IMG/VR virus record: IMGVR_UViG_3300029736_000350
Reading direction: 5' to 3' (one strand)
DNA: 10,211 bases
Source: a virus
Taxonomy: Duplodnaviria; Heunggongvirae; Uroviricota; Caudoviricetes
Shown here one piece after another: positions 1,023 through 9,004 of the stretch. Position numbers and translations under genes: made by a program. The notes beneath the pieces are model-generated. The model saw only the letters and a program-made list of their open reading frames with translations, searched no databases and was not told the DNA's origin. Each line of letters starts with the position of its first letter. Positions within the stretch are counted from its first letter, which is position 1.

Positions 1023-1400
1023 TTATTTCGAACAATCAGCATCCATCTCCAATCGGAGATCCAACACCATCAGCATGCCCTCCACTACGCCCTCAGCTTT
1101 CTGGAGCATCCTGCCAACCCAACAATCAGATCGCCCATGCTTACGTGCAAGCGCCATAAAAGTCATGCCGCCGACATAATAGTCCACCAATAAATCATGT
1201 AAATCGCTGTTGTTTTTTTTCAGGCGAGCCATACATTCACAAATGATCATCGCGTCATCGTCACAGCATTGCGGACGAGATCTTACTTTTGAAGGAATTA
1301 ATCCCTTAAAACCGGCGGCAATGGACGACCAGGTCACATCTTCATGATTATTAGCCGCCCATGCCCCCCAACGCTCAAGAACCATCTGAATATCACGCAT
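1023..1400 (-). CDS. Phage antitermination protein Q (QuuD / phage 82 type)
   Basis: Track ORF 1023..1415 begins with a TTG; the likely true start is ATG at 1400 ([22 protein letters not shown]...) with GGAG about 9 nt upstream. Sequence matches the DLP12 QuuD-type Q antiterminator as I recall it, including the [11 protein letters not shown] cysteine-rich motif. Confidence 0.85.
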
Positions 1401-1417
1401 CAACTTACTCCACAAAA

Positions 1418-2348
1418 TTAGGCCAGCACACCAATTGCCAGCGCGCGATCGATAAATCGAAAAATCAGCTCCAGTTGGGAGCCATACTTCTCTTCAAATG
1501 CCACGGTATCCGTATGCAACTCGTCGTGATGCTTTCTGCACAAAGGCAAAACAAAGAGATCATGTGCTTTGGTTCCCATTCCGCCCTGCCCGTGACCAAT
1601 CAGATGATGCGGATCGTCGGCTGGCATACCGCAGCAAGCACACGGCTGTGTCTTAACCCAGCGTGTGTATTTCTCCTTAACCCACCGGTGACGTTTAGGC
1701 AGCTTCATGAAAGATTCCGGAGACTCTGGATCAACGGTGATGCTTACCACCGTCTTTTCCTGTGATGGGTTTTGTTGCTGGTGGGCGTGAGGCAACGGTG
1801 CAAGATTTTTTGTGCGCTGTTTCAATATGCTGGTGGCGGTCTGCTCTCCCGGTACGATGTCGCTTTCGCGGTACACCGAGCAGATTTTTTCCGCTGGTAA
1901 TCCCAGCGAGCGACGTAATACCGCTTCCGGTAGCGCGTCCGCCAGCTGATTGCGGACCGCCCACCAGGATACCCGGGTATTGTGGAATACCGGCATGGAT
2001 TCACGGCCCGGCTTAACGACCACCAGCCCAAGTTCCGGTACCAGAACAGGTCGAAGTAATACCCGCACGTTACCTCCAGATGCGTTGCTGGAATGTACGG
2101 GACGGACGCGGTGGGCGTTCGGAGTAAGGCAATCTGACTGAGATTATCCAGTGACGGTAGTCGAGACTAAGGGCTTTCTTAACCTCGTATCCGCGCCTGC
2201 GGTAACACTGAATTATCCATTCAGCCTGCTCTTCAGTGCATGGAGGGTGTTGGAACCATTCAGACTTGAATGCGTGAGAATACCGCTCGTGCGTGCAGAC
2301 AAGAACGGGCGAATTATCAGAATTGTAATATTTTACGTTGCGTGCCAT
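1418..2348 (-). pseudogene. DUF968 / YdfU-like HNH-type putative nuclease, split by a frameshift
   Basis: Two adjacent minus-strand ORFs, 2070..2348 (ATG at 2348, GGAG 9 nt upstream) and 1418..2068 (starts at GTG). Both frames are open across 2070..2143, so a single indel there would rejoin them to about 310 aa. C-terminal part carries a Cys/His motif (PCACCG...HHLIGHG...CRKHHDELH). Sits directly upstream of Q, as ydfU does in K-12 Qin. DUF number is from memory. Confidence 0.6.
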
Positions 2349-2414: not shown

Positions 2415-2567
2415 TTATTCTTCTGCAAAAGCTGAAAAGCCTGCTTTTATTCCGATCTCTTTCAGTGCCTGTATCCCCCAAGCAGCAACACTTGCCAGTC
2501 TCACTCCTGCGGCATTGGCAAGCTTTGTTTTGCTGCCAAAAAAAGTAATTGCGTCAACTTTAAGCAT
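2415..2567 (-). CDS. Cro/DicC-like small regulator, divergent from the repressor gene
   Basis: Not in the ORF track (50 aa). ATG at 2567 with GAGGGGG 5-6 nt upstream; translation MLKVDAITFFGSKTKLANAAGVRLASVAAWGIQALKEIGIKAGFSAFAEE, stop at 2415..2417. Position (divergent from the dicA-like gene, first gene of the operon leading to Q) and the GSKTKLA...AG..LASV pattern fit a Cro/DicC-type protein. Confidence 0.55.
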   Translation of the reverse strand: MLKVDAITFFGSKTKLANAAGVRLASVAAWGIQALKEIGIKAGFSAFAEE

Positions 2568-2580
2568 CAAAGCCCCCTCT

Positions 2581-2598
2581 TGTTAGACTTTTCTAACA
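2581..2598. promoter_or_regulatory. Palindromic operator (OR-like), candidate DicA-like repressor binding site
   Basis: Perfect inverted repeat TGTTAGA-cttt-TCTAACA between the divergent Cro-like and dicA-like genes; the same arms recur at 3092..3109. Confidence 0.6.
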
Positions 2599-2625
2599 TT
2601 ATTGTGCGCGGGATACCTAAGTCAA
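2598..2625 (-). promoter_or_regulatory. Sigma70-type promoter for the Cro/DicC-like operon (pR analogue)
   Basis: On the minus strand: -35 TTGACT (2625..2620), 16-nt spacer, -10 AATAAT (2603..2598). The -10 abuts and the predicted start site falls inside the palindromic operator at 2581..2598. Confidence 0.5.
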
Positions 2626-2647
2626 GAAAAATTAGAATTACCTAACT

Positions 2648-3055
2648 ATGGATACAAGAACCCTAGGCCAGCGAGTTCTGGCGCGACGAAAAGAATTACG
2701 CTTAACACAACGAGAAGCTGCGCGCCTCGCTGGAGTTGCTCACGTCACAATTTCACAATGGGAAAGAGACGAAACCCAGCCAGTCGGAAAACGATTGTTT
2801 GCTTTAGCGGATGCTCTGAAGTGCTCACCTACATGGCTAATGTTTGGTGACGAAGACAAGGCACCAGTGCCTGCACAAGAACTTCATGTGGAAACAGAGC
2901 TAACTCCCAACCACAAAGAATTGATCGAATTATTCGATGCTCTTCCATCTTCCGAGCAGGAAGCCTTGCTGTCTGAAATGCGCGCAAGAGTAGAAAACTT
3001 CAACAAACTCTTCGAAGAAATGCTTAAAGCGCGTAAAAATAAATCAATAAAATAA
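2648..3055 (+). CDS. dicA: DicA-like HTH (XRE-family) prophage repressor
   Basis: 135-aa ORF; N-terminal HTH (LRLTQREAARLAGVAHVTISQWERDE) and C-terminal region (CSPTW..FGDEDK....LPSSEQ..LSEMRARVENFNKLFEEMLKAR) closely resemble E. coli DicA as recalled, while the HTH region appears more divergent. No strong SD before the ATG at 2648; an in-frame TAG at 2633 rules out an upstream start. Confidence 0.85.
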   Translation: MDTRTLGQRVLARRKELRLTQREAARLAGVAHVTISQWERDETQPVGKRLFALADALKCSPTWLMFGDEDKAPVPAQELHVETELTPNHKELIELFDALPSSEQEALLSEMRARVENFNKLFEEMLKARKNKSIK

Positions 3056-3087
3056 CATTCTTTTCAAGTGATTAGTTGCGCCCACCC

Positions 3088-3113
3088 TTTTTGTTAGATC
3101 AATCTAACAAAAA
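3088..3113. promoter_or_regulatory. Palindromic operator (OL-like) upstream of the ydfA-dicB operon
   Basis: Extended perfect inverted repeat TTTTTGTTAGA-tcaa-TCTAACAAAAA; core arms identical to the operator at 2581..2598. Lies between the dicA-like stop (3055) and the ydfA start (3224). Confidence 0.6.
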
Positions 3114-3127
3114 ACACTCGCCTCTCA

Positions 3128-3145
3128 TGTTAGGTTATTCTAAAT
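3128..3145. promoter_or_regulatory. Degenerate third operator-like site
   Basis: TGTTAG-gttat-TCTAAAT, an imperfect copy of the operator palindrome about 36 bp downstream of the perfect site; possible cooperative site. Confidence 0.3.
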
Positions 3146-3223
3146 TACTTTCCATCAAGACACCGCACGGTGTTCTCAGCAAACAGTTCCGCTACCCCGG
3201 CGTTAAGGGGAAATGAGGTCAGC

Positions 3224-3376
3224 ATGGATACTATCGATCTTGGCAACAGCGAATCTCTGGTATGTGGCGTGTTCCCCAACCAGGACGGTACGTTCACCGC
3301 GATGACATATACCAAAAGCAAAACGTTTAAAACCGAATCTGGCGCGCGTTGCTGGTTAGCCAGAAACACTGACTGA
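3224..3376 (+). CDS. ydfA: YdfA-like small protein (Qin prophage early-left operon)
   Basis: Track ORF 3170..3376 contains an internal ATG at 3224 with GAGG about 8 nt upstream; product MDTIDLGNSESLVCGVFPNQDGTFTAMTYTKSKTFKTESGARCWLARNTD (50 aa) matches the Qin YdfA as I recall it. Confidence 0.75.
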   Translation: MDTIDLGNSESLVCGVFPNQDGTFTAMTYTKSKTFKTESGARCWLARNTD

Positions 3377-3753
3377 TGAGGCTGACGATGGAATTTAAAG
3401 ATTTACCGTCTGATGTACAGAAAACAGCAGCTCATACATTGCATTCTGTGCTGCGAGAAATCGGGAAAGATATTGCAAGCGAGCCAGCAAAAGATCTGGC
3501 CCGGAAAATCAAGACCGCTTTCGTTGAGCTTTATAATGTTGGCACTGACTCTGAAACTGTCGAGACCAAGACCGTAAGTTCACCAATATTCTCACTTGAG
3601 CCAGGCGTATTATCAGGTGAAATATGCACCGAGATTTCCAGCGAACTGCTTCCGGTAATACGAGAAGCAATTTGCCGTCGCGGTTTGGATGGAAGTTACG
3701 ATCATGACGTCCTGCAAGTTCTCAGGACAATGGTGACTTCACTGGGGATTTGA
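3376..3753 (+). CDS. Hypothetical early-left protein in the ydfB/ydfC position
   Basis: 125-aa ORF whose ATG at 3376 overlaps the ydfA stop (TGATG); alternative start ATG at 3388 with GAGG 7 nt upstream. K-12 has two small genes (ydfB, ydfC) here; this may be a fused or unsplit version. No recognisable domain. Confidence 0.5.
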   Translation: MRLTMEFKDLPSDVQKTAAHTLHSVLREIGKDIASEPAKDLARKIKTAFVELYNVGTDSETVETKTVSSPIFSLEPGVLSGEICTEISSELLPVIREAICRRGLDGSYDHDVLQVLRTMVTSLGI

Positions 3754-3922
3754 TCCCTGCGTCCTCTAACCTTTTGATATAGCGGTCCTCCAAGAAGCGG
3801 TAAATTTTGTCGAAATCATCTTTCCCCTCTGGTTTATTCAGAGGATTACAGGACCCGTAAGTAGCGGCATACATTTCAACCGTTTTATCAAAAATATAAG
3901 AGACAAATTCTTCTTTAGTCAT
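3722..3922 (-). CDS. Candidate small protein, convergent with the preceding ORF (unknown function)
   Basis: ATG at 3922 with AAGGAA about 7 nt upstream; 66 aa (MTKEEFVSYIFDKTVEMYAATYGSCNPLNKPEGKDDFDKIYRFLEDRYIKRLEDAGIKSPVKSPLS). The longer track ORF 3722..4009 starts at a GTG. Overlaps the 3' end of 3376..3753 by about 30 nt. No family recognised. Confidence 0.25.
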   Translation of the reverse strand: MTKEEFVSYIFDKTVEMYAATYGSCNPLNKPEGKDDFDKIYRFLEDRYIKRLEDAGIKSPVKSPLS

Positions 3923-4197
3923 ATAGATTTCCTTCTTGGTTATTCGGGATAAGAAGGATACCACCTCGCCTGACGTGGTTAAAAGCAGGCACACAACACG
4001 AAAGCGCACGGCGAAGTTCGTCTCACTGTACGGTGTCGTTAAATTTAATTCGACCGTGCGCTTCCGGTTGTGGCAACCCGCGAAATGGCGCGGCGGTAAG
4101 TATGGCGGGGTTATTCCTTCCCCGTTGAGGACACCGAGTTGTCAGGTTGACCATACGCTTAAGTGACAACCCCGCTGCAACGCCCTCTGTTATCAAT

Positions 4198-4255
4198 TTT
4201 CTGGTGACGTTTGGCGGTATCAGTTTTACTCCGTGACTGCTCTGCCGCCGTTTTT
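4198..4255 (+). ncRNA. dicF: DicF small RNA
   Basis: TTTCTGGTGACGTTTGGCGGTATCAGTTTTACTCCGTGACTGCTCTGCCGCC matches the E. coli DicF sequence as I recall it, followed by a T5 run; located between the ydfB/C-like ORF and dicB as in K-12. Ends are approximate. Confidence 0.75.
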
Positions 4256-4424
4256 AAAGTGAATTTTGTGATGCGGTGAATGCGGCTAAGCGCACGCGGA
4301 ACAGTTAAAACCAAAAACAGTGTTATGGGTGGATTCTCTGTATCCGGCGTTAATTGTTAACTGGTTAACGTCACCTGGAGGCACCAGGCACTGCATCACA
4401 AAATTCATTGTTGAGGACGCGATA

Positions 4425-4613
4425 ATGAAAACGTTATTACCAAACGTTAATACGTCTGAAGGTTGTTTTGAAATTGGTGTCACTATCAGTAACCCTGTAT
4501 TTACTGAAGATGCCATTAACAAGAGAAAACAAGAACGGGAGCTATTAAATAAAATATGCATTGTTTCAATGCTGGCTCGTTTACGTCTGATGCCAAAAGG
4601 ATGTACACAATGA
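4425..4613 (+). CDS. dicB: DicB cell-division inhibitor
   Basis: Internal ATG at 4425 of track ORF 4320..4613, with GAGGA about 9 nt upstream; 62-aa product MKTLLPNVNTSEGCFEIGVTISNPVFTEDAINKRKQERELLNKICIVSMLARLRLMPKGCTQ is essentially the K-12 DicB sequence as I recall it. Confidence 0.9.
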   Translation: MKTLLPNVNTSEGCFEIGVTISNPVFTEDAINKRKQERELLNKICIVSMLARLRLMPKGCTQ

Positions 4614-4801
4614 ATTCAGCATTTGCGCTTGTTCTGACAGTTTTTCTTGTTTCCGGAGAGCCAGTTGATATTGCAGACAGTGTTCACAGGACAATGCAGG
4701 AGTGTATGACTGCAGCAACCGAACAGAAAATTCCCGGTAACTGTTACCCGGTCGATAAAGTTATTCACCAGGATAATATCGAAATCCCGGCAGGTCTTTA
4801 A
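4610..4801 (+). CDS. ydfD: YdfD-like small membrane protein (prophage lysis protein)
   Basis: ATG at 4610 overlaps the dicB stop (ATGA); 63-aa product MNSAFALVLTVFLVSGEPVDIADSVHRTMQECMTAATEQKIPGNCYPVDKVIHQDNIEIPAGL with an N-terminal hydrophobic segment, matching Qin YdfD as recalled. Confidence 0.85.
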   Translation: MNSAFALVLTVFLVSGEPVDIADSVHRTMQECMTAATEQKIPGNCYPVDKVIHQDNIEIPAGL

Positions 4802-4894
4802 AACAGTTCCGTAATAAATATCCGGTTTCATTCTTATATGCCAGCAATGGCAGGGATTTGTTCATCCTTAAATCTGTCATGAGGTTAAAACAAA

Positions 4895-7366
4895 ATGAGT
4901 AAAGTCTTTATTTGCGCCGCTATTCCTGACGAACTGGCAACAAGGGAAGAAGGCGCTGTGGCTGTAGCCACAGCCATTGAAGCTGGCGACGAACGCCGTG
5001 CTCGAGCAAAATTTCACTGGCAGTTCCTGGAACATTATCCGGCTGCTCAGGACTGCGCTTATAAATTTATTGTCTGCGAGGATAAACCTGGCATACCCCG
5101 CCCTGCCCTCGATTCATGGGATGCTGAATATATGCAGGAAAACCGCTGGGATGAGGAGTCTGCTTCTTTTGTCCCGGTTGAGACTGAATCCGATCCGATG
5201 AACGTCACTTTTGACAAGCTGGCCCCTGAAGTACAGAACGCTGTCATGGTTAAGTTCGACACATGTGAAAACATCACCGTTGATATGGTTATTAGCGCAC
5301 AGGAATTGTTGCAGGAAGACATGGCAACATTCGACGGACATATCGTTGAAGCGTTGATGAAAATGCCAGAAGTTAACGCCATGTATCCGGAGCTTAAGTT
5401 GCACGCCATTGGGTGGGTTAAGCATAAATGTATTCCTGGTGCTAAATGGCCCGAAATTCAGGCAGAGATGCGCATCTGGAAAAAACGTCGCGAAGGTGAA
5501 CGCAAGGAAACCGGAAAATACACGTCTGTTGTTGATCTCGCCCGCGCCAGAGCCAATCAACAGTACACTGAAAATTCAACAGGAAAAATCAGCCCGGTCA
5601 TTGCTGCCATTCATCGCGAATACAAGCAGACATGGAAAACACTGGATGACGAACTGGCCTACGCTCTCTGGCCTGGTGATGTGGATGCCGGAAACATTGA
5701 CGGCAGCATCCATCGCTGGGCAAAAAAAGAAGTTATCGACAACGACCGCGAAGACTGGAAGCGTATCTCGGCATCAATGCGCAAACAGCCTGATGCCCTT
5801 CGCTACGACCGCCAAACTATTTTTGGCCTTGTCCGTGAGCGTCCGATCGACATTCACAAAGATCCCGTAGCACTGAACAAATATATCTGCGAATACCTGA
5901 CGACAAAGGGCGTGTTTGAGAATGAAGAAACAGACCTGGGCACTGTTGATGTTCTCCAGTCATCAGAAACACAAACTGATGCAGTGGAAACTGAGGTATC
6001 TGATATCCCAAAAAATGAAACCGCGCCGGAAGCTGAACCATCTGTAGAGCGTGAGGGGCCGTTCTATTTCCTCTTCGCAGATAAGGACGGAGAAAAATAC
6101 GGTCGCGCAAACAAACTTTCTGGTCTGGATAAGGCACTGGCTGCTGGCGCCACTGAAATCACAAAAGAAGAATATTTTGCCCGAAAAAATGGCACATACA
6201 CGGGCTTACCGCAAAATGTAGATACCGCTGAAGATTCAGAACAACCAGAGCCGATAAAAGTTACCGCTGACGAAGTAAACAAAATTATGCAGGCAGCCAA
6301 TATCAGCCAGCCTGACGCCGATAAGTTGCTTGCTGCATCACATGGTGAATTTGTTGAAGGGATTAGTGACCCGAATGATCCGAAATGGGTTAAGGGGATC
6401 CAGACCCGCGATTCTGTGAACCAGAACCAGCATGAATCGGAACGGAACTACCAAAAAGCGGAACAAAACAGCCCAAATGCGTTACAAAACGAGCCAGAAA
6501 CGAAACAGCCTGAACCAGTGGCGCAACAGGAAGTGGAAAAAGTCTGCACCGCCTGCGGTCAGACCGGCGGCGGCAACTGCCCTGATTGTGGCGCGGTGAT
6601 GGGCGACGCAACATACCAAAAAACATTCGATGAAGAGTATCAGGTTGAAGTTCAGGAAGATGATCCGGAGGAAATGGAAGGCGCTGAACATCCACACAAG
6701 GAGAACACTGGCGGCAATCAGCATCACAATAGCGATAATGAAACTGGCGAGACGGCAGATCACTCAATTAAGGTGAACAGTCATCACGAAATCACATCCA
6801 CCAGCAGGACGTGTGACCATCTAATGATCGACCTTGAAACCATGGGAAAAAATCCTGATGCACCGATCATCTCAATAGGTGCAATATTTTTCGATCCGCA
6901 AACCGGAGATATAGGACCGGAATTTAGTAAGACTATCGATCTGGAAACTGCTGGCGGAGTCATTGATCGGGACACCATTAAATGGTGGCTTAAGCAATCA
7001 CGCGAAGCACAATCTGCCATTATGACCGATGAAATCCCGCTAGATGATGCACTGTTACAATTGCGGGAATTTATCGACGAAAACTCCGGTGAATTTTTTG
7101 TTCAGGTTTGGGGAAATGGAGCCAACTTCGACAACACGATTTTGCGCCGTTCATACGAACGGCAGGGGATCCCCTGCCCGTGGCGTTACTACAACGATCG
7201 CGATGTACGCACAATCGTTGAGCTGGGGAAAGCCATAGATTTCGATGCCAGAACGGCTATTCCATTCGAAGGTGAGCGCCATAATGCACTTGATGACGCC
7301 CGTTACCAAGCAAAATACGTTTCAGTTATCTGGCAAAAACTGATCCCGAGTCAGGCTGATTCTTAA
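4895..7366 (+). CDS. Large YdfE-like early protein: N-terminal domain of unknown function, Cys4 zinc ribbon, C-terminal DEDDh (DnaQ-like) 3'-5' exonuclease domain
   Basis: 823-aa ORF; ATG at 4895 with GAGG about 10 nt upstream. C-terminal motifs: Exo I MIDLETMG (D646, E648; nt 6830..6838), Exo II WGNGANFD (nt 7109..7132), Exo III HNALDDA (nt 7280..7300). C-x2-C-x7-C-x2-C at aa 551..565 (nt 6545..6589). Acidic low-complexity linkers around aa 335..380 and 575..630. Occupies the recE-like position upstream of xis-int. Confidence 0.85.
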   Translation: MSKVFICAAIPDELATREEGAVAVATAIEAGDERRARAKFHWQFLEHYPAAQDCAYKFIVCEDKPGIPRPALDSWDAEYMQENRWDEESASFVPVETESDPMNVTFDKLAPEVQNAVMVKFDTCENITVDMVISAQELLQEDMATFDGHIVEALMKMPEVNAMYPELKLHAIGWVKHKCIPGAKWPEIQAEMRIWKKRREGERKETGKYTSVVDLARARANQQYTENSTGKISPVIAAIHREYKQTWKTLDDELAYALWPGDVDAGNIDGSIHRWAKKEVIDNDREDWKRISASMRKQPDALRYDRQTIFGLVRERPIDIHKDPVALNKYICEYLTTKGVFENEETDLGTVDVLQSSETQTDAVETEVSDIPKNETAPEAEPSVEREGPFYFLFADKDGEKYGRANKLSGLDKALAAGATEITKEEYFARKNGTYTGLPQNVDTAEDSEQPEPIKVTADEVNKIMQAANISQPDADKLLAASHGEFVEGISDPNDPKWVKGIQTRDSVNQNQHESERNYQKAEQNSPNALQNEPETKQPEPVAQQEVEKVCTACGQTGGGNCPDCGAVMGDATYQKTFDEEYQVEVQEDDPEEMEGAEHPHKENTGGNQHHNSDNETGETADHSIKVNSHHEITSTSRTCDHLMIDLETMGKNPDAPIISIGAIFFDPQTGDIGPEFSKTIDLETAGGVIDRDTIKWWLKQSREAQSAIMTDEIPLDDALLQLREFIDENSGEFFVQVWGNGANFDNTILRRSYERQGIPCPWRYYNDRDVRTIVELGKAIDFDARTAIPFEGERHNALDDARYQAKYVSVIWQKLIPSQADS

Positions 7367-7438: not shown

Positions 7439-7690
7439 ATGAGCGAAGTAATCATGATTGTCTCTCCCGGCAAATGGGTATCCGAAGAGCAGTTAATTGC
7501 GCTGAAAGGAATAAAAAAAGGTACGTTAAAAAAGGCCCGGTAAAAATCGTTTATGGAAGGAAGGGAATATAAGCATGTCGCTCATGACGGTATGCCATGG
7601 GATAACAGTCCATGCTTTTACAACCTGGAAGAAATTGATCGCTGGATTGAGCGCCAGGCATCAGCGAGACCAAGACGTCATCTTACTTGA
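7439..7690 (+). pseudogene. Excisionase (Xis)-like gene interrupted by a +1 frameshift
   Basis: Frame A: ATG at 7439 gives MSEVIMIVSPGKWVSEEQLIALKGIKKGTLKKAR, stop at 7541. Frame B from 7545 gives KSFMEGREYKHVAHDGMPWDNSPCFYNLEEIDRWIERQASARPRRHLT, stop at 7688..7690. Joined, this is an ~80-aa protein with the GREY motif of lambda-type Xis. The shift must lie in 7515..7540, which contains A-runs. Confidence 0.55.
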
Positions 7691-7724
7691 CTAAAAGCCA
7701 CACTAACTAATGAGAGAAGTTGAA

Positions 7725-9004
7725 ATGAAATATCCGACAGGCGTGGAAAACCATGGAGGGAAATTACGTATCTGGTTTGTTTATAAAGGCGTAAGAGTCA
7801 GGGAAAATCTGGGGGTTCCTGACACAGCAAAAAACAGGCGCGTTGCAGGTGAACTACGCGCCTCTGTTTGTTACGCAATAAAAACTGGTGTTTTCGACTA
7901 TGCAAAACAGTTTCCCTCCTCACGCAATCTGGAAAAATTTGGTGAGGCCCGACAAGATTTAACCATAAAAGAACTGGCTGAAAAATTTCTGGCACTAAAA
8001 GAAACTGAAGTCGCCAAAACATCACTCAACACATACCGTGCCGTCATCAAAAATATCCTGAGCATAATCGGTGAAAAAAATCTTGCCTCATCGATTAATA
8101 AAGAAAAATTACTGGAGGTTCGTAAAGAGCTACTGACTGGATACCAGATCCCCAAAAGTAACTATATTGTTACACAACCAGGGAGATCGGCTGTAACTGT
8201 AAATAATTACATGACAAATCTTAACGCCGTGTTCCAGTTTGGTGTTGATAACGGTTACCTGGCAGATAATCCGTTTAAGGGGATCTCGCCATTAAAGGAA
8301 TCAAGAACCATTCCGGATCCTCTTTCGCGGGAGGAATTTATCCGTCTTATCGATGCGTGCAGAAATCAGCAAGCAAAAAATTTATGGTGTGTTTCTGTTT
8401 ATACTGGCATTCGCCCTGGTGAGCTGTGTGCACTTGGATGGGAGGACATAGATCTGAAAAATGGAACAATGATGATCAGGAGAAATTTAGCAAAAGACCG
8501 TTTCACGGTACCAAAAACACAGGCGGGAACCAATCGGGTCATTCATCTTATTAAGCCAGCAATCGACGCTCTCCGGAGTCAGATGACATTAACGAGACTG
8601 AGCAAAGAGCATATCATTGATGTTCACCTCAGAGAGTATGGCAGAACAGAAAAACAAAATGCACCTTTGTTTTTCAACCTGAAGTGTCAGCGAGAGTAAA
8701 AAATTATGGTGACCATTTTACCGTTGACTCAATAAGGCAGATGTGGGACGCAGCGATAAAACGTGCCGGACTCCGCCATCGAAAATCATATCAGTCGAGA
8801 CATACTTATGCCTGCTGGTCGCTGACAGCTGGTGCTAACCCGGCATTTATAGCAAACCAGATGGGCCATGCAGATGCGCAAATGGTATTTCAGGTATACG
8901 GAAAATGGATGTCTGAAAACAATAATGCACAGGTAGCTTTGTTAAATACACAGTTAAGCGAGTTTGCCCCAACCATGCCCCATAACGAAGCAATGAAAAA
9001 TTAA
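7725..9004 (+). pseudogene. intQ: Tyrosine recombinase (phage integrase) split by a frameshift
   Basis: Track ORFs 7710..8699 and 8684..9004 (second starts at GTG). Likely start ATG at 7725 (MKYPTGVENHGGKLRIWF, arm-binding N-terminus) with GAGAG upstream. First frame carries the box I Arg (YTGIRPGEL); second frame carries H-x-x-R (LRHRKSYQSRHTY), a His (MGH) and the catalytic Tyr (QVYGKW). Both frames open across 8621..8696. Position next to rspB matches intQ of K-12, itself annotated as defective. Confidence 0.8.

Follow-up and report, generated by a model that had tools for sequence, protein, structure and literature searches.

The region around dicA in the window (the whole 10,211-nt stretch of DNA that was analysed) belongs to a cryptic lambdoid prophage of the Qin type and is its immunity region, in the E. 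coli B-type allele dicC-dicA-(ydfA-dicF-dicB). The reading that best explains it as a whole, to which we give a probability of roughly 85%, is a Qin-type switch built on DicA operators that has decayed through a SNP and a deletion and is probably locked off. By sequence comparison, the window is nearly the same as E. coli B REL606 (NC_012967, 1616726-1631110), from which it differs by the absence of 4174 bp and by only three SNPs, and the prophage adjoins rspB within E. coli chromosome sequence. For K-12, the operator model, repression at dicC and dicBF and a near-leaderless message of dicA are already in the literature; a comparative site map and natural promoter and deletion variants are all that is added here to that picture. 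Functional roles are carried over by analogy from K-12 DicA, which is 57% identical to the repressor in the window.

Table 1. Features of the immunity region and its surroundings, with positions in the window.
Feature	Position	Strand	Remarks
Remaining dicCp unit after the deletion	1023..2348	-	92-aa ORF, DUF968, antiterminator Q
Antiterminator Q	1023-1415	-	
DUF968	1418-2068	-	
92-aa ORF	2070-2348	-	
Chimeric ORF	2415..2567	-	50 aa from ATG 2567; 51 aa from TTG 2570
Deletion junction	2473..2474	.	4174 bp missing relative to REL606 (2674-6847 of the compared stretch)
O_C, candidate primary DicA operator TGTTAG-N6-CTAACA	2581..2598	.	half-sites identical to K-12 Oc
dicCp	2598..2625	-	-35 TTGACT (2625-2620), 16-nt spacer, -10 AATAAT (2603-2598); consensus scan
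O_A-like fourth site AATTAGAATTACCTAACT	2630..2647	.	overlaps proposed dicAp -10 (2633-2638) and predicted start A2645
dicA-like repressor gene, 135 aa	2648..3055	+	WP_000381212.1; HTH_3 with a short C-terminal region and without an S24 peptidase domain
O_B1, perfect palindrome	3092..3109	.	9 bp upstream of the proposed dicBp -35 hexamer
Proposed dicBp	3118..3146	+	-35 TCGCCT (3118-3123), 17-nt spacer, -10 TAAATT (3141-3146)
O_B2, degenerate candidate operator TGTTAGGTTATTCTAAAT	3128..3145	.	over spacer and -10 of the proposed dicBp
Conserved leader of the ydfA-dicF-dicB transcript	3153..3223	+	
ydfA (DUF1391)	3224..3376	+	profile match; first gene of the operon under DicA in K-12
DicF sRNA	4199..4250	+	Rfam RF00039, 72.5 bits, E=7.7e-15
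dicB, cell-division inhibitor	4425..4613	+	RefSeq annotation of identical REL606 sequence, offset 4374

The repressor gene and its start

The gene assignments proposed from the sequence alone were borne out by profile searches. The repressor reached 224.7 bits against the NCBIfam DicA profile (NF007257, cut-off 101) over residues 1-134, and the assignments of ydfA to DUF1391 and of DicF to RF00039 (72.5 bits) held likewise. Pfam matches of the 135-aa protein were confined to helix-turn-helix families, and the same profile search gave no match to the Peptidase_S24 autocleavage domain, which is also absent from K-12 DicA (PMC10448788). The closest solved structure was the N-terminal domain of P22 C2 (E=1.3e-18, residues 1-71). 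A disrupted dicA, to which a 71-aa call on one public contig would point, was rejected: the DNA there is identical to the window, and the short call is a gene caller's choice of start, as is to be expected because dicA has no Shine-Dalgarno sequence.

The 20 nt before ATG 2648 (aaaattagaattacctaact) do indeed contain neither GGAG, GAGG nor AGGA, and the idea of a leaderless dicA message that had been built on this agrees, by analogy, with the transcription start of K-12 dicA, which was mapped 3 nt ahead of its ATG (PMC4681348, Table S3). TAGAAT lies 7 nt upstream of the base that corresponds to that mapped start (ATG minus 3). We propose it as the -10 of a dicA promoter, dicAp, which has a predicted start at A2645 and no recognisable -35; Reg-Seq did not find an active dicA promoter in K-12 (PMC7567609). 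The consensus promoter scan called the hexamers of neither dicAp nor dicBp, and both sets were inferred. Taken together, the lack of a Shine-Dalgarno sequence and the placement of TAGAAT are consistent with a near-leaderless dicA mRNA.

Palindromic sites on either side of dicA

The exact palindrome TGTTAGA-N4-TCTAACA occurs twice in the window (TGTTAGACTTTTCTAACA at 2581-2598 and TGTTAGATCAATCTAACA at 3092-3109), against 0.00 expected from 200 dinucleotide-preserving shuffles. The sequence-only reading had called these two operators identical, which is correct for the half-sites, but the central 4 nt differ. A degenerate copy with three mismatches does start 36 bp after the second palindrome, as that reading had also noted; the set of three that it described is in fact a set of four, arranged as two plus two, since the site at 2630-2647 had been missed. 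The TTAG-N6-CTAA core is found four times in the 10.2-kb window, always inside 565 bp around dicA, while 300 shuffles gave an expectation of 0.22 and a maximum of 2. A chance origin of the palindromes is ruled out by these shuffle counts.

On the dicC side, an operator of the Oc type overlaps the dicC promoter. The minus-strand promoter scores 10/12, the last base of its -10 is the last base of the palindrome, and O_C also covers its predicted start (~2591). The homologous K-12 promoter reads TTGACT-17-TATCTT, and the AGTCAA block that carries the -35 is conserved across genera. The divergent genes are 80 bp apart, as first described, when counted from ATG 2567, which corresponds to the start of K-12 DicC (MLK...), and 77 bp apart if the dicC-like ORF starts at TTG 2570. 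The unit served by dicCp consists of dicC'-'rem, the 92-aa ORF, DUF968 and Q. On the other side, the proposed promoter between dicA and ydfA is flanked by candidate operators, with O_B1 and O_B2 bracketing hexamers homologous to those of K-12; O_B1 lies 36-41 bp after the dicA stop across alleles, and a homologue of O_B2 follows it by 35-36 bp in K-12 (TGTTAGTCATGGCTAATC), Citrobacter and Buttiauxella. Neither of the centre-to-centre spacings, 36 and 49 bp, amounts to a whole number of helical turns, and lambda-style cooperative binding of adjacent dimers is hence not implied.

The assignment of these sites to DicA draws on K-12. There, DicA binds Oc in vivo, a single base change abolishes binding, and occupancy of Oc represses dicC and activates dicA, while the predicted sites Om and Oa were reported not to bind DicA in vivo (data not shown) (PMC3441716). 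K-12 DicA also represses the dicBF operon's promoter (PMC3441716, PMC10448788), and deletion of dicA induces dicBp 22-fold (PMC10448788). Reg-Seq detected the site at which DicA represses dicC and gave the DicA site at dicB a low evidence rating and an unknown location (PMC7567609); we found no further information on DicA sites in the Reg-Seq and gSELEX papers. As the half-sites in the window are those of K-12 Oc (TTGTTAG-N6-CTAACAA), a model in which one repressor controls both operons, as proposed in the sequence-only reading, is by analogy well founded.

The loci for the comparative analysis were collected solely by similarity to DicA at the protein level, with a single genome for each species, and come from E. 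ruysiae, E. albertii, Citrobacter, Buttiauxella, Enterobacter, Pantoea and Erwinia. The four sites occupy the same positions in the Escherichia, Citrobacter and Buttiauxella loci, and O_C is held at -67 from the dicA ATG in this set, picked by protein similarity only. In a seven-allele alignment the conserved blocks are only the TTAG/CTAA half-sites, the dicCp -35, TAGAAT and the TTG and TAAAT/TAATC of dicBp, and both intergenic spacers have otherwise diverged between alleles. The Enterobacter, Pantoea and Erwinia alleles carry CCTTAGG...CCTAAG instead. Co-variation of recognition helix and operator was considered for this, but these alleles have an identical recognition helix (VAHVTISQWERDETQP); their DicA proteins differ in helix 2 and the N-terminal arm.

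A scan of related prophages for the motif, which the earlier reading had suggested, placed a DicA-like gene 39-81 bp from an exact TTGTTAG-N6-CTAACAA in 43 of 120 viral contigs (the first 120). Among 42 distinct regulatory regions, TTAG..CTAA was invariant at O_C and present in 41-42 of 42 at O_A; the viral contigs among them were picked by the motif, which makes conservation of the selected site there partly circular and leaves only their non-selected sites as independent. Tripartite operators were not found in the window or across alleles, each region having two TTAG-N6-CTAA sites. The layout conserved across genera is thus 2+2 sites, not 3+3, and the map gives the poorly located DicA sites at dicBp a position, the first upstream of the -35 and the second across the -10.

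The fourth site has another possible interpretation. Conservation at 2630-2647 might reflect the dicA core promoter, its start and a near-leaderless translation start, with the likeness to a half-site being incidental, and we consider this a real possibility, somewhat below even odds. The equivalent site in K-12, Oa, was not bound by DicA in vivo (PMC3441716), TAGAAT precedes the K-12-homologous dicA start by exactly 7 nt, and the site scores only 9/12, a level at which about 5 matches per window are expected by chance. However, TTAG and CTAA with a 6-nt gap are retained in 41-42 of 42 regions although a -10 has no need of the CTAA half. ChIP-seq of DicC, moreover, located one site to either side of dicA, with the motif TT(A/C/T)G...C(G/A/T)AA, and the peak in the dicC-dicA intergenic region (TTNG...CNAA) speaks for an operator here (PMC11430063, preprint), as does lambda logic, by which Cro would be expected to bind over the promoter of the repressor gene. 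The same ChIP-seq result could be turned against DicA altogether: with DicC on both sides of dicA, the palindromes might mainly be targets of DicC/Cro alone or of the host protein YjdC, cited as a regulator of DicA targets when DicA is absent (PMC11430063), and DicA might act elsewhere or indirectly, in keeping with the low-evidence rating of its site at dicB in Reg-Seq (PMC7567609). We think this improbable, because DicA-Oc binding in vivo is sequence-specific and DicA-dependent (PMC3441716) and Reg-Seq did recover a DicA repressor site at dicC (PMC7567609); in lambdoid phages, repressor and Cro normally share operators, and a role of DicC or YjdC complements the DicA reading rather than replacing it.

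Most improbable of all is that the palindrome after dicA (3088-3113, with 12-nt arms) is an RNA hairpin or terminator for dicA and not a protein site. Its RNA fold is strong (-9.9 kcal/mol, z = -8 against shuffles), and a scan of the window found no other terminator after dicA. The stem, however, is A/U-rich and followed by an A run, with no U run on either strand, and the homologous K-12 site (TGTTAGCTATAGCATACA) has no pairable palindrome. Across alleles the half-sites are kept while the centre varies freely, which is the pattern of a protein site. A terminator or hairpin role was rejected on these grounds.

With DicA operators on both sides of dicA as the preferred reading, the switch might work as follows. 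A DicA-like dimer, with a P22 C2-like helix-turn-helix and no RecA-cleavable domain, would bind TGTTAG-N6-CTAACA operators. At O_C it would cover the edge of the dicCp -10 and the start, shutting off the leftward operon, and, by analogy with K-12, would stimulate the weak dicAp, whose mRNA would have a leader of about 3 nt. At O_B1 and O_B2 it would flank and cover the -35 and -10 of dicBp and so keep the toxic operon ydfA-dicF-dicB silent. DicC would probably repress dicA from O_A, a weak site over the dicA -10 and start.

Decay of the switch

The proposed dicBp, with a predicted start near A3154, was delimited by alignment with the K-12 hexamers TTGACC-17-TAATCT and five other alleles. Its -35 carries one of the only three SNPs relative to REL606, a T-to-C change at C3119 that turns TTGCCT into TCGCCT, while the TTG is present in all six other aligned alleles. 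The chance that one of three random SNPs lands in the hexamer is ~0.002, a value calculated after the fact. The exact 61-mer with C3119 occurs in 2 of the 477 complete genomes that carry the segment. One of these, strain MIN14, has the SNP without the 4174-bp deletion, and the SNP therefore preceded the deletion.

Downstream of this promoter, the conserved leader contains, in order, CATCAA, the hairpin ACACCG-CA-CGGTGT, TCTCAG, GTTCCGC and the hairpin CCCC-GGCGTTAA-GGGG. It gave no credible Rfam match (best E = 0.51, far below gathering), and as a whole it folds no better than its shuffles (z = -0.02). An HK022 put-type RNA was considered and rejected, as blastn (word size 7, E<=100) returned 0 matches between the leader and a 5-kb HK022 stretch including PL-nun, and reading the HK022 PL-nun interval by eye showed no likeness to putL. 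Further along the operon, PF05358 (DicB) is recorded on a public contig identical to the window, and ydfD follows dicB.

The deletion has reshaped the other arm of the switch. Comparison of the translated ORF with Cro (75 aa) and Rem (83 aa) of REL606 showed that DicC residues 1-32 are joined in frame to Rem residues 66-83, its last 18, with the rem stop codon in use. The gene described from sequence as Cro/DicC-like is thus DicC-like over its first 32 residues, but the remainder is a Rem tail, making it a truncated DicC'-'Rem chimera. A full-length divergent DicC (~75 aa) is absent from the window: only residues 1-31 match DicC family profiles, with 51.6 bits against NCBIfam DicC NF007282 (cut-off 130) and 24.7 against Pfam P22_Cro (cut-off 30.2, profile positions 2-30 of 60 only). 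The 43 C-terminal residues that were lost are 100% identical between K-12 and REL606, and full-length DicC is retained in REL606 and MIN14, which represent the ancestral state. Relative to REL606, the deleted segment comprises the 5' part of rem, hokD, queH, a methyltransferase fragment, DUF977, a replication-type gene, ydaT and the 3' half of dicC, and its ends share a GTA microhomology. The junction is found in none of 5426 complete E. coli genomes. The chimeric protein is, on the other hand, encoded in exactly this form on 7 public contigs, three of which match the window completely or almost completely over up to 5.6 kb; an artificial or misassembled junction is ruled out by its presence on 7 independent public contigs, and the junction is therefore real. 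The compact appearance that had been taken for a minimal switch, and the proximity of Q to dicCp that had been taken for a Cro-Q operon, are both products of the 4174-bp deletion and not of design.

In K-12, where DicA and DicC have been shown to be bistable, Rem is an antirepressor (165-fold induction), and induction, whether spontaneous or by urea or heat, requires DicC (PMC10448788). As Rem and roughly half of the Cro fold are missing, the two known ways of derepression, through Rem and through DicC, are probably lost in the window, and we infer that the switch is probably locked in its DicA-on state. The steps of decay would be a T-to-C change that destroys the TTG of the dicBp -35, followed by the 4174-bp deletion that fused DicC(1-32) to the Rem tail. 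SNP and deletion together suggest a progressive silencing of the toxic operon. That selection drove this stepwise, by a -35 down-mutation and then by a 4.2-kb deletion removing both derepression routes, is a more doubtful proposition, which we hold to be possible but unlikely. The DicC(1-32)-Rem(66-83) peptide could keep partial activity, in DNA binding or in contact with DicA. If the changes were adaptive, they would show how a bistable prophage switch has been turned, in nature, into a one-way lock. Natural promoter and deletion variants of the switch in E. coli B-related strains would affect DicB and DicF expression in strains that serve as laboratory hosts.

Relation to lambda, P22, Gifsy-type and K-12 switches

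The proteins of lambda are unrelated to those of the DicA system beyond the helix-turn-helix motif, and the likeness is one of logic. By analogy, the repressor would block PR- and PL-like promoters and activate its own weak promoter, from which a nearly leaderless message would be made, with Cro as the counter-repressor, although the Cro arm is truncated in the window. The centre of O_C lies ~55 bp ahead of the predicted start of dicA, unlike lambda OR2, which lies at -42. RecA-mediated induction, present in lambda, is absent from the DicA system.

P22 immC is closer in its parts, with a C2-type N-terminal domain, the P22_Cro match, a divergent repressor/cro pair and a single repressor in control of early promoters in both directions, leftward and rightward. 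Yet P22 has three sites per promoter region against the two conserved here, and its operator half-site is of the TTAAG type against TTAG in the window. P22 C2, furthermore, has 216 aa with an S24 autocleavage domain, compared with 135 aa without it here (PMC10448788). Non-cleavable repressors of the Gifsy type offer a parallel, as K-12 DicA too is inactivated by a small antirepressor, Rem, and not by cleavage (PMC10448788). In contrast to both the Gifsy type and K-12, the antirepressor gene in the window is reduced to its last 18 codons and the route is absent.

The closest relative by far is K-12 Qin, with the same chromosomal site (rspB), the same gene order, a DicA of 135 aa and a dicCp -35 of TTGACT; a dicA without Shine-Dalgarno and a downstream ydfA/DicF/dicB are likewise common to both. 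K-12 Oc (TTGTTAGTCATAACTAACAA) precedes the dicA ATG by 68 bp and has the half-sites TGTTAG/CTAACA seen in the window, ATTTAGCATTAGCTAACT overlaps the K-12 dicA ATG, and sites at -67/-68 and -18 are found in both. After K-12 dicA, the site homologous to O_B1 is followed 35 bp later by that homologous to O_B2, with TTGACC-17-TAATCT between and over them. The differences concern the central operator bases (TGTTAGA..T in the window, TGTTAGY..R in K-12), O_B1, perfectly palindromic in the window but degenerate in K-12, and the -35 of dicBp (TCGCCT against TTGACC). Unlike K-12, the window has a DicC of 32 residues with a Rem tail, and rem, hokD, ydaT and replication genes are deleted; its 823-aa exonuclease is intact, whereas that of K-12 is a pseudogene interrupted by IS2. 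A DicA allele that is 57% identical and has the same outer half-sites could be used for tests of specificity or heteroimmunity, and the present copy is best placed as an allelic, partly decayed member of the Qin dicA/dicC/dicB region.

A chimeric DicC-Rem frame and a SNP in the proposed dicB-operon promoter

Relative to REL606 (E. coli B) and the strain MIN14, the window has lost 4174 bp, including rem, hokD, queH, a DUF977 gene, ydaT, and a replication-type gene, and the deletion fuses DicC(1-32) in frame to Rem(66-83). The junction was not found among 5426 complete E. coli genomes; the deletion and its chimera occur on seven public contigs, including GCA_015555725.1 and one from a human gut metagenome. 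A T-to-C change at position 3119 converts the otherwise invariant TTG of the proposed -35 hexamer of the dicB operon to TCG. This rare SNP (2/477 genomes) is common to the deletion-free MIN14 and all three chimera-bearing contigs shown. Two further SNPs separate the window from REL606, at 364 (G against A; lipocalin gene) and at 7541 (T against G; excisionase gene interval).

Features of the window
Feature	Position	Details
DicC(1-32)-Rem(66-83) chimera ORF	2415-2567	in-frame; junction 2473/2474; from comparison with REL606 and MIN14
ydfA-dicF-dicB transcript leader	3153-3223	order: CATCAA, hairpin, TCTCAG, GTTCCGC, hairpin
YdfE-type exonuclease gene	4895-7366	823 aa, intact
Integrase, split	7710-9004	two overlapping ORFs, 7710-8699 and 8684-9004

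Leader of the ydfA-dicF-dicB operon

The leader is kept across genera, and pairing in its second hairpin is preserved by compensatory changes in 3/8 and 2/8 sequences. It had no match in Rfam and showed no resemblance to HK022 putL. Together with ydfA, it is also present in the functional phages mEp460, HannyBb, PhiR42_1, and phiES15, whose repressors differ. In the Citrobacter and Buttiauxella loci (L006-L008), a boxA-like CGCTCTTTAACAA preceded by a GC hairpin lies ~90-110 nt downstream of the dicBp-like promoter, the place occupied by ydfA in Escherichia loci. This arrangement suggests a putative nut-type site in these prophages.

DicA alleles and gene calls

The DicA alleles of Enterobacter, Pantoea, and Erwinia (L009-L011; 65-68% identity) are accompanied by CCTTAGG-N4-CCTAAG operators, located ~67 bp before the start codon (ATG) of the dicA-like gene and replacing TGTTAG-N6-CTAACA. 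Despite the different operators, the recognition helix VAHVTISQWERDETQP is identical in these alleles, and their differences sit in the N-terminal arm and helix 2 (SQAALGKMVQ, P22 C2-like), which may be the specificity determinants. On contig L027, whose DNA is identical to that of the window, a gene caller reported a dicA of only 71 aa (2513-2728), presumably having passed over the real start codon, which lacks a Shine-Dalgarno sequence.

Integrase and exonuclease

The split integrase is consistent with a prophage unable to excise; the identical gene in REL606 is annotated as frameshifted by RefSeq. The YdfE-type exonuclease gene is intact in the window, whereas in K-12 it is an IS2-interrupted pseudogene.
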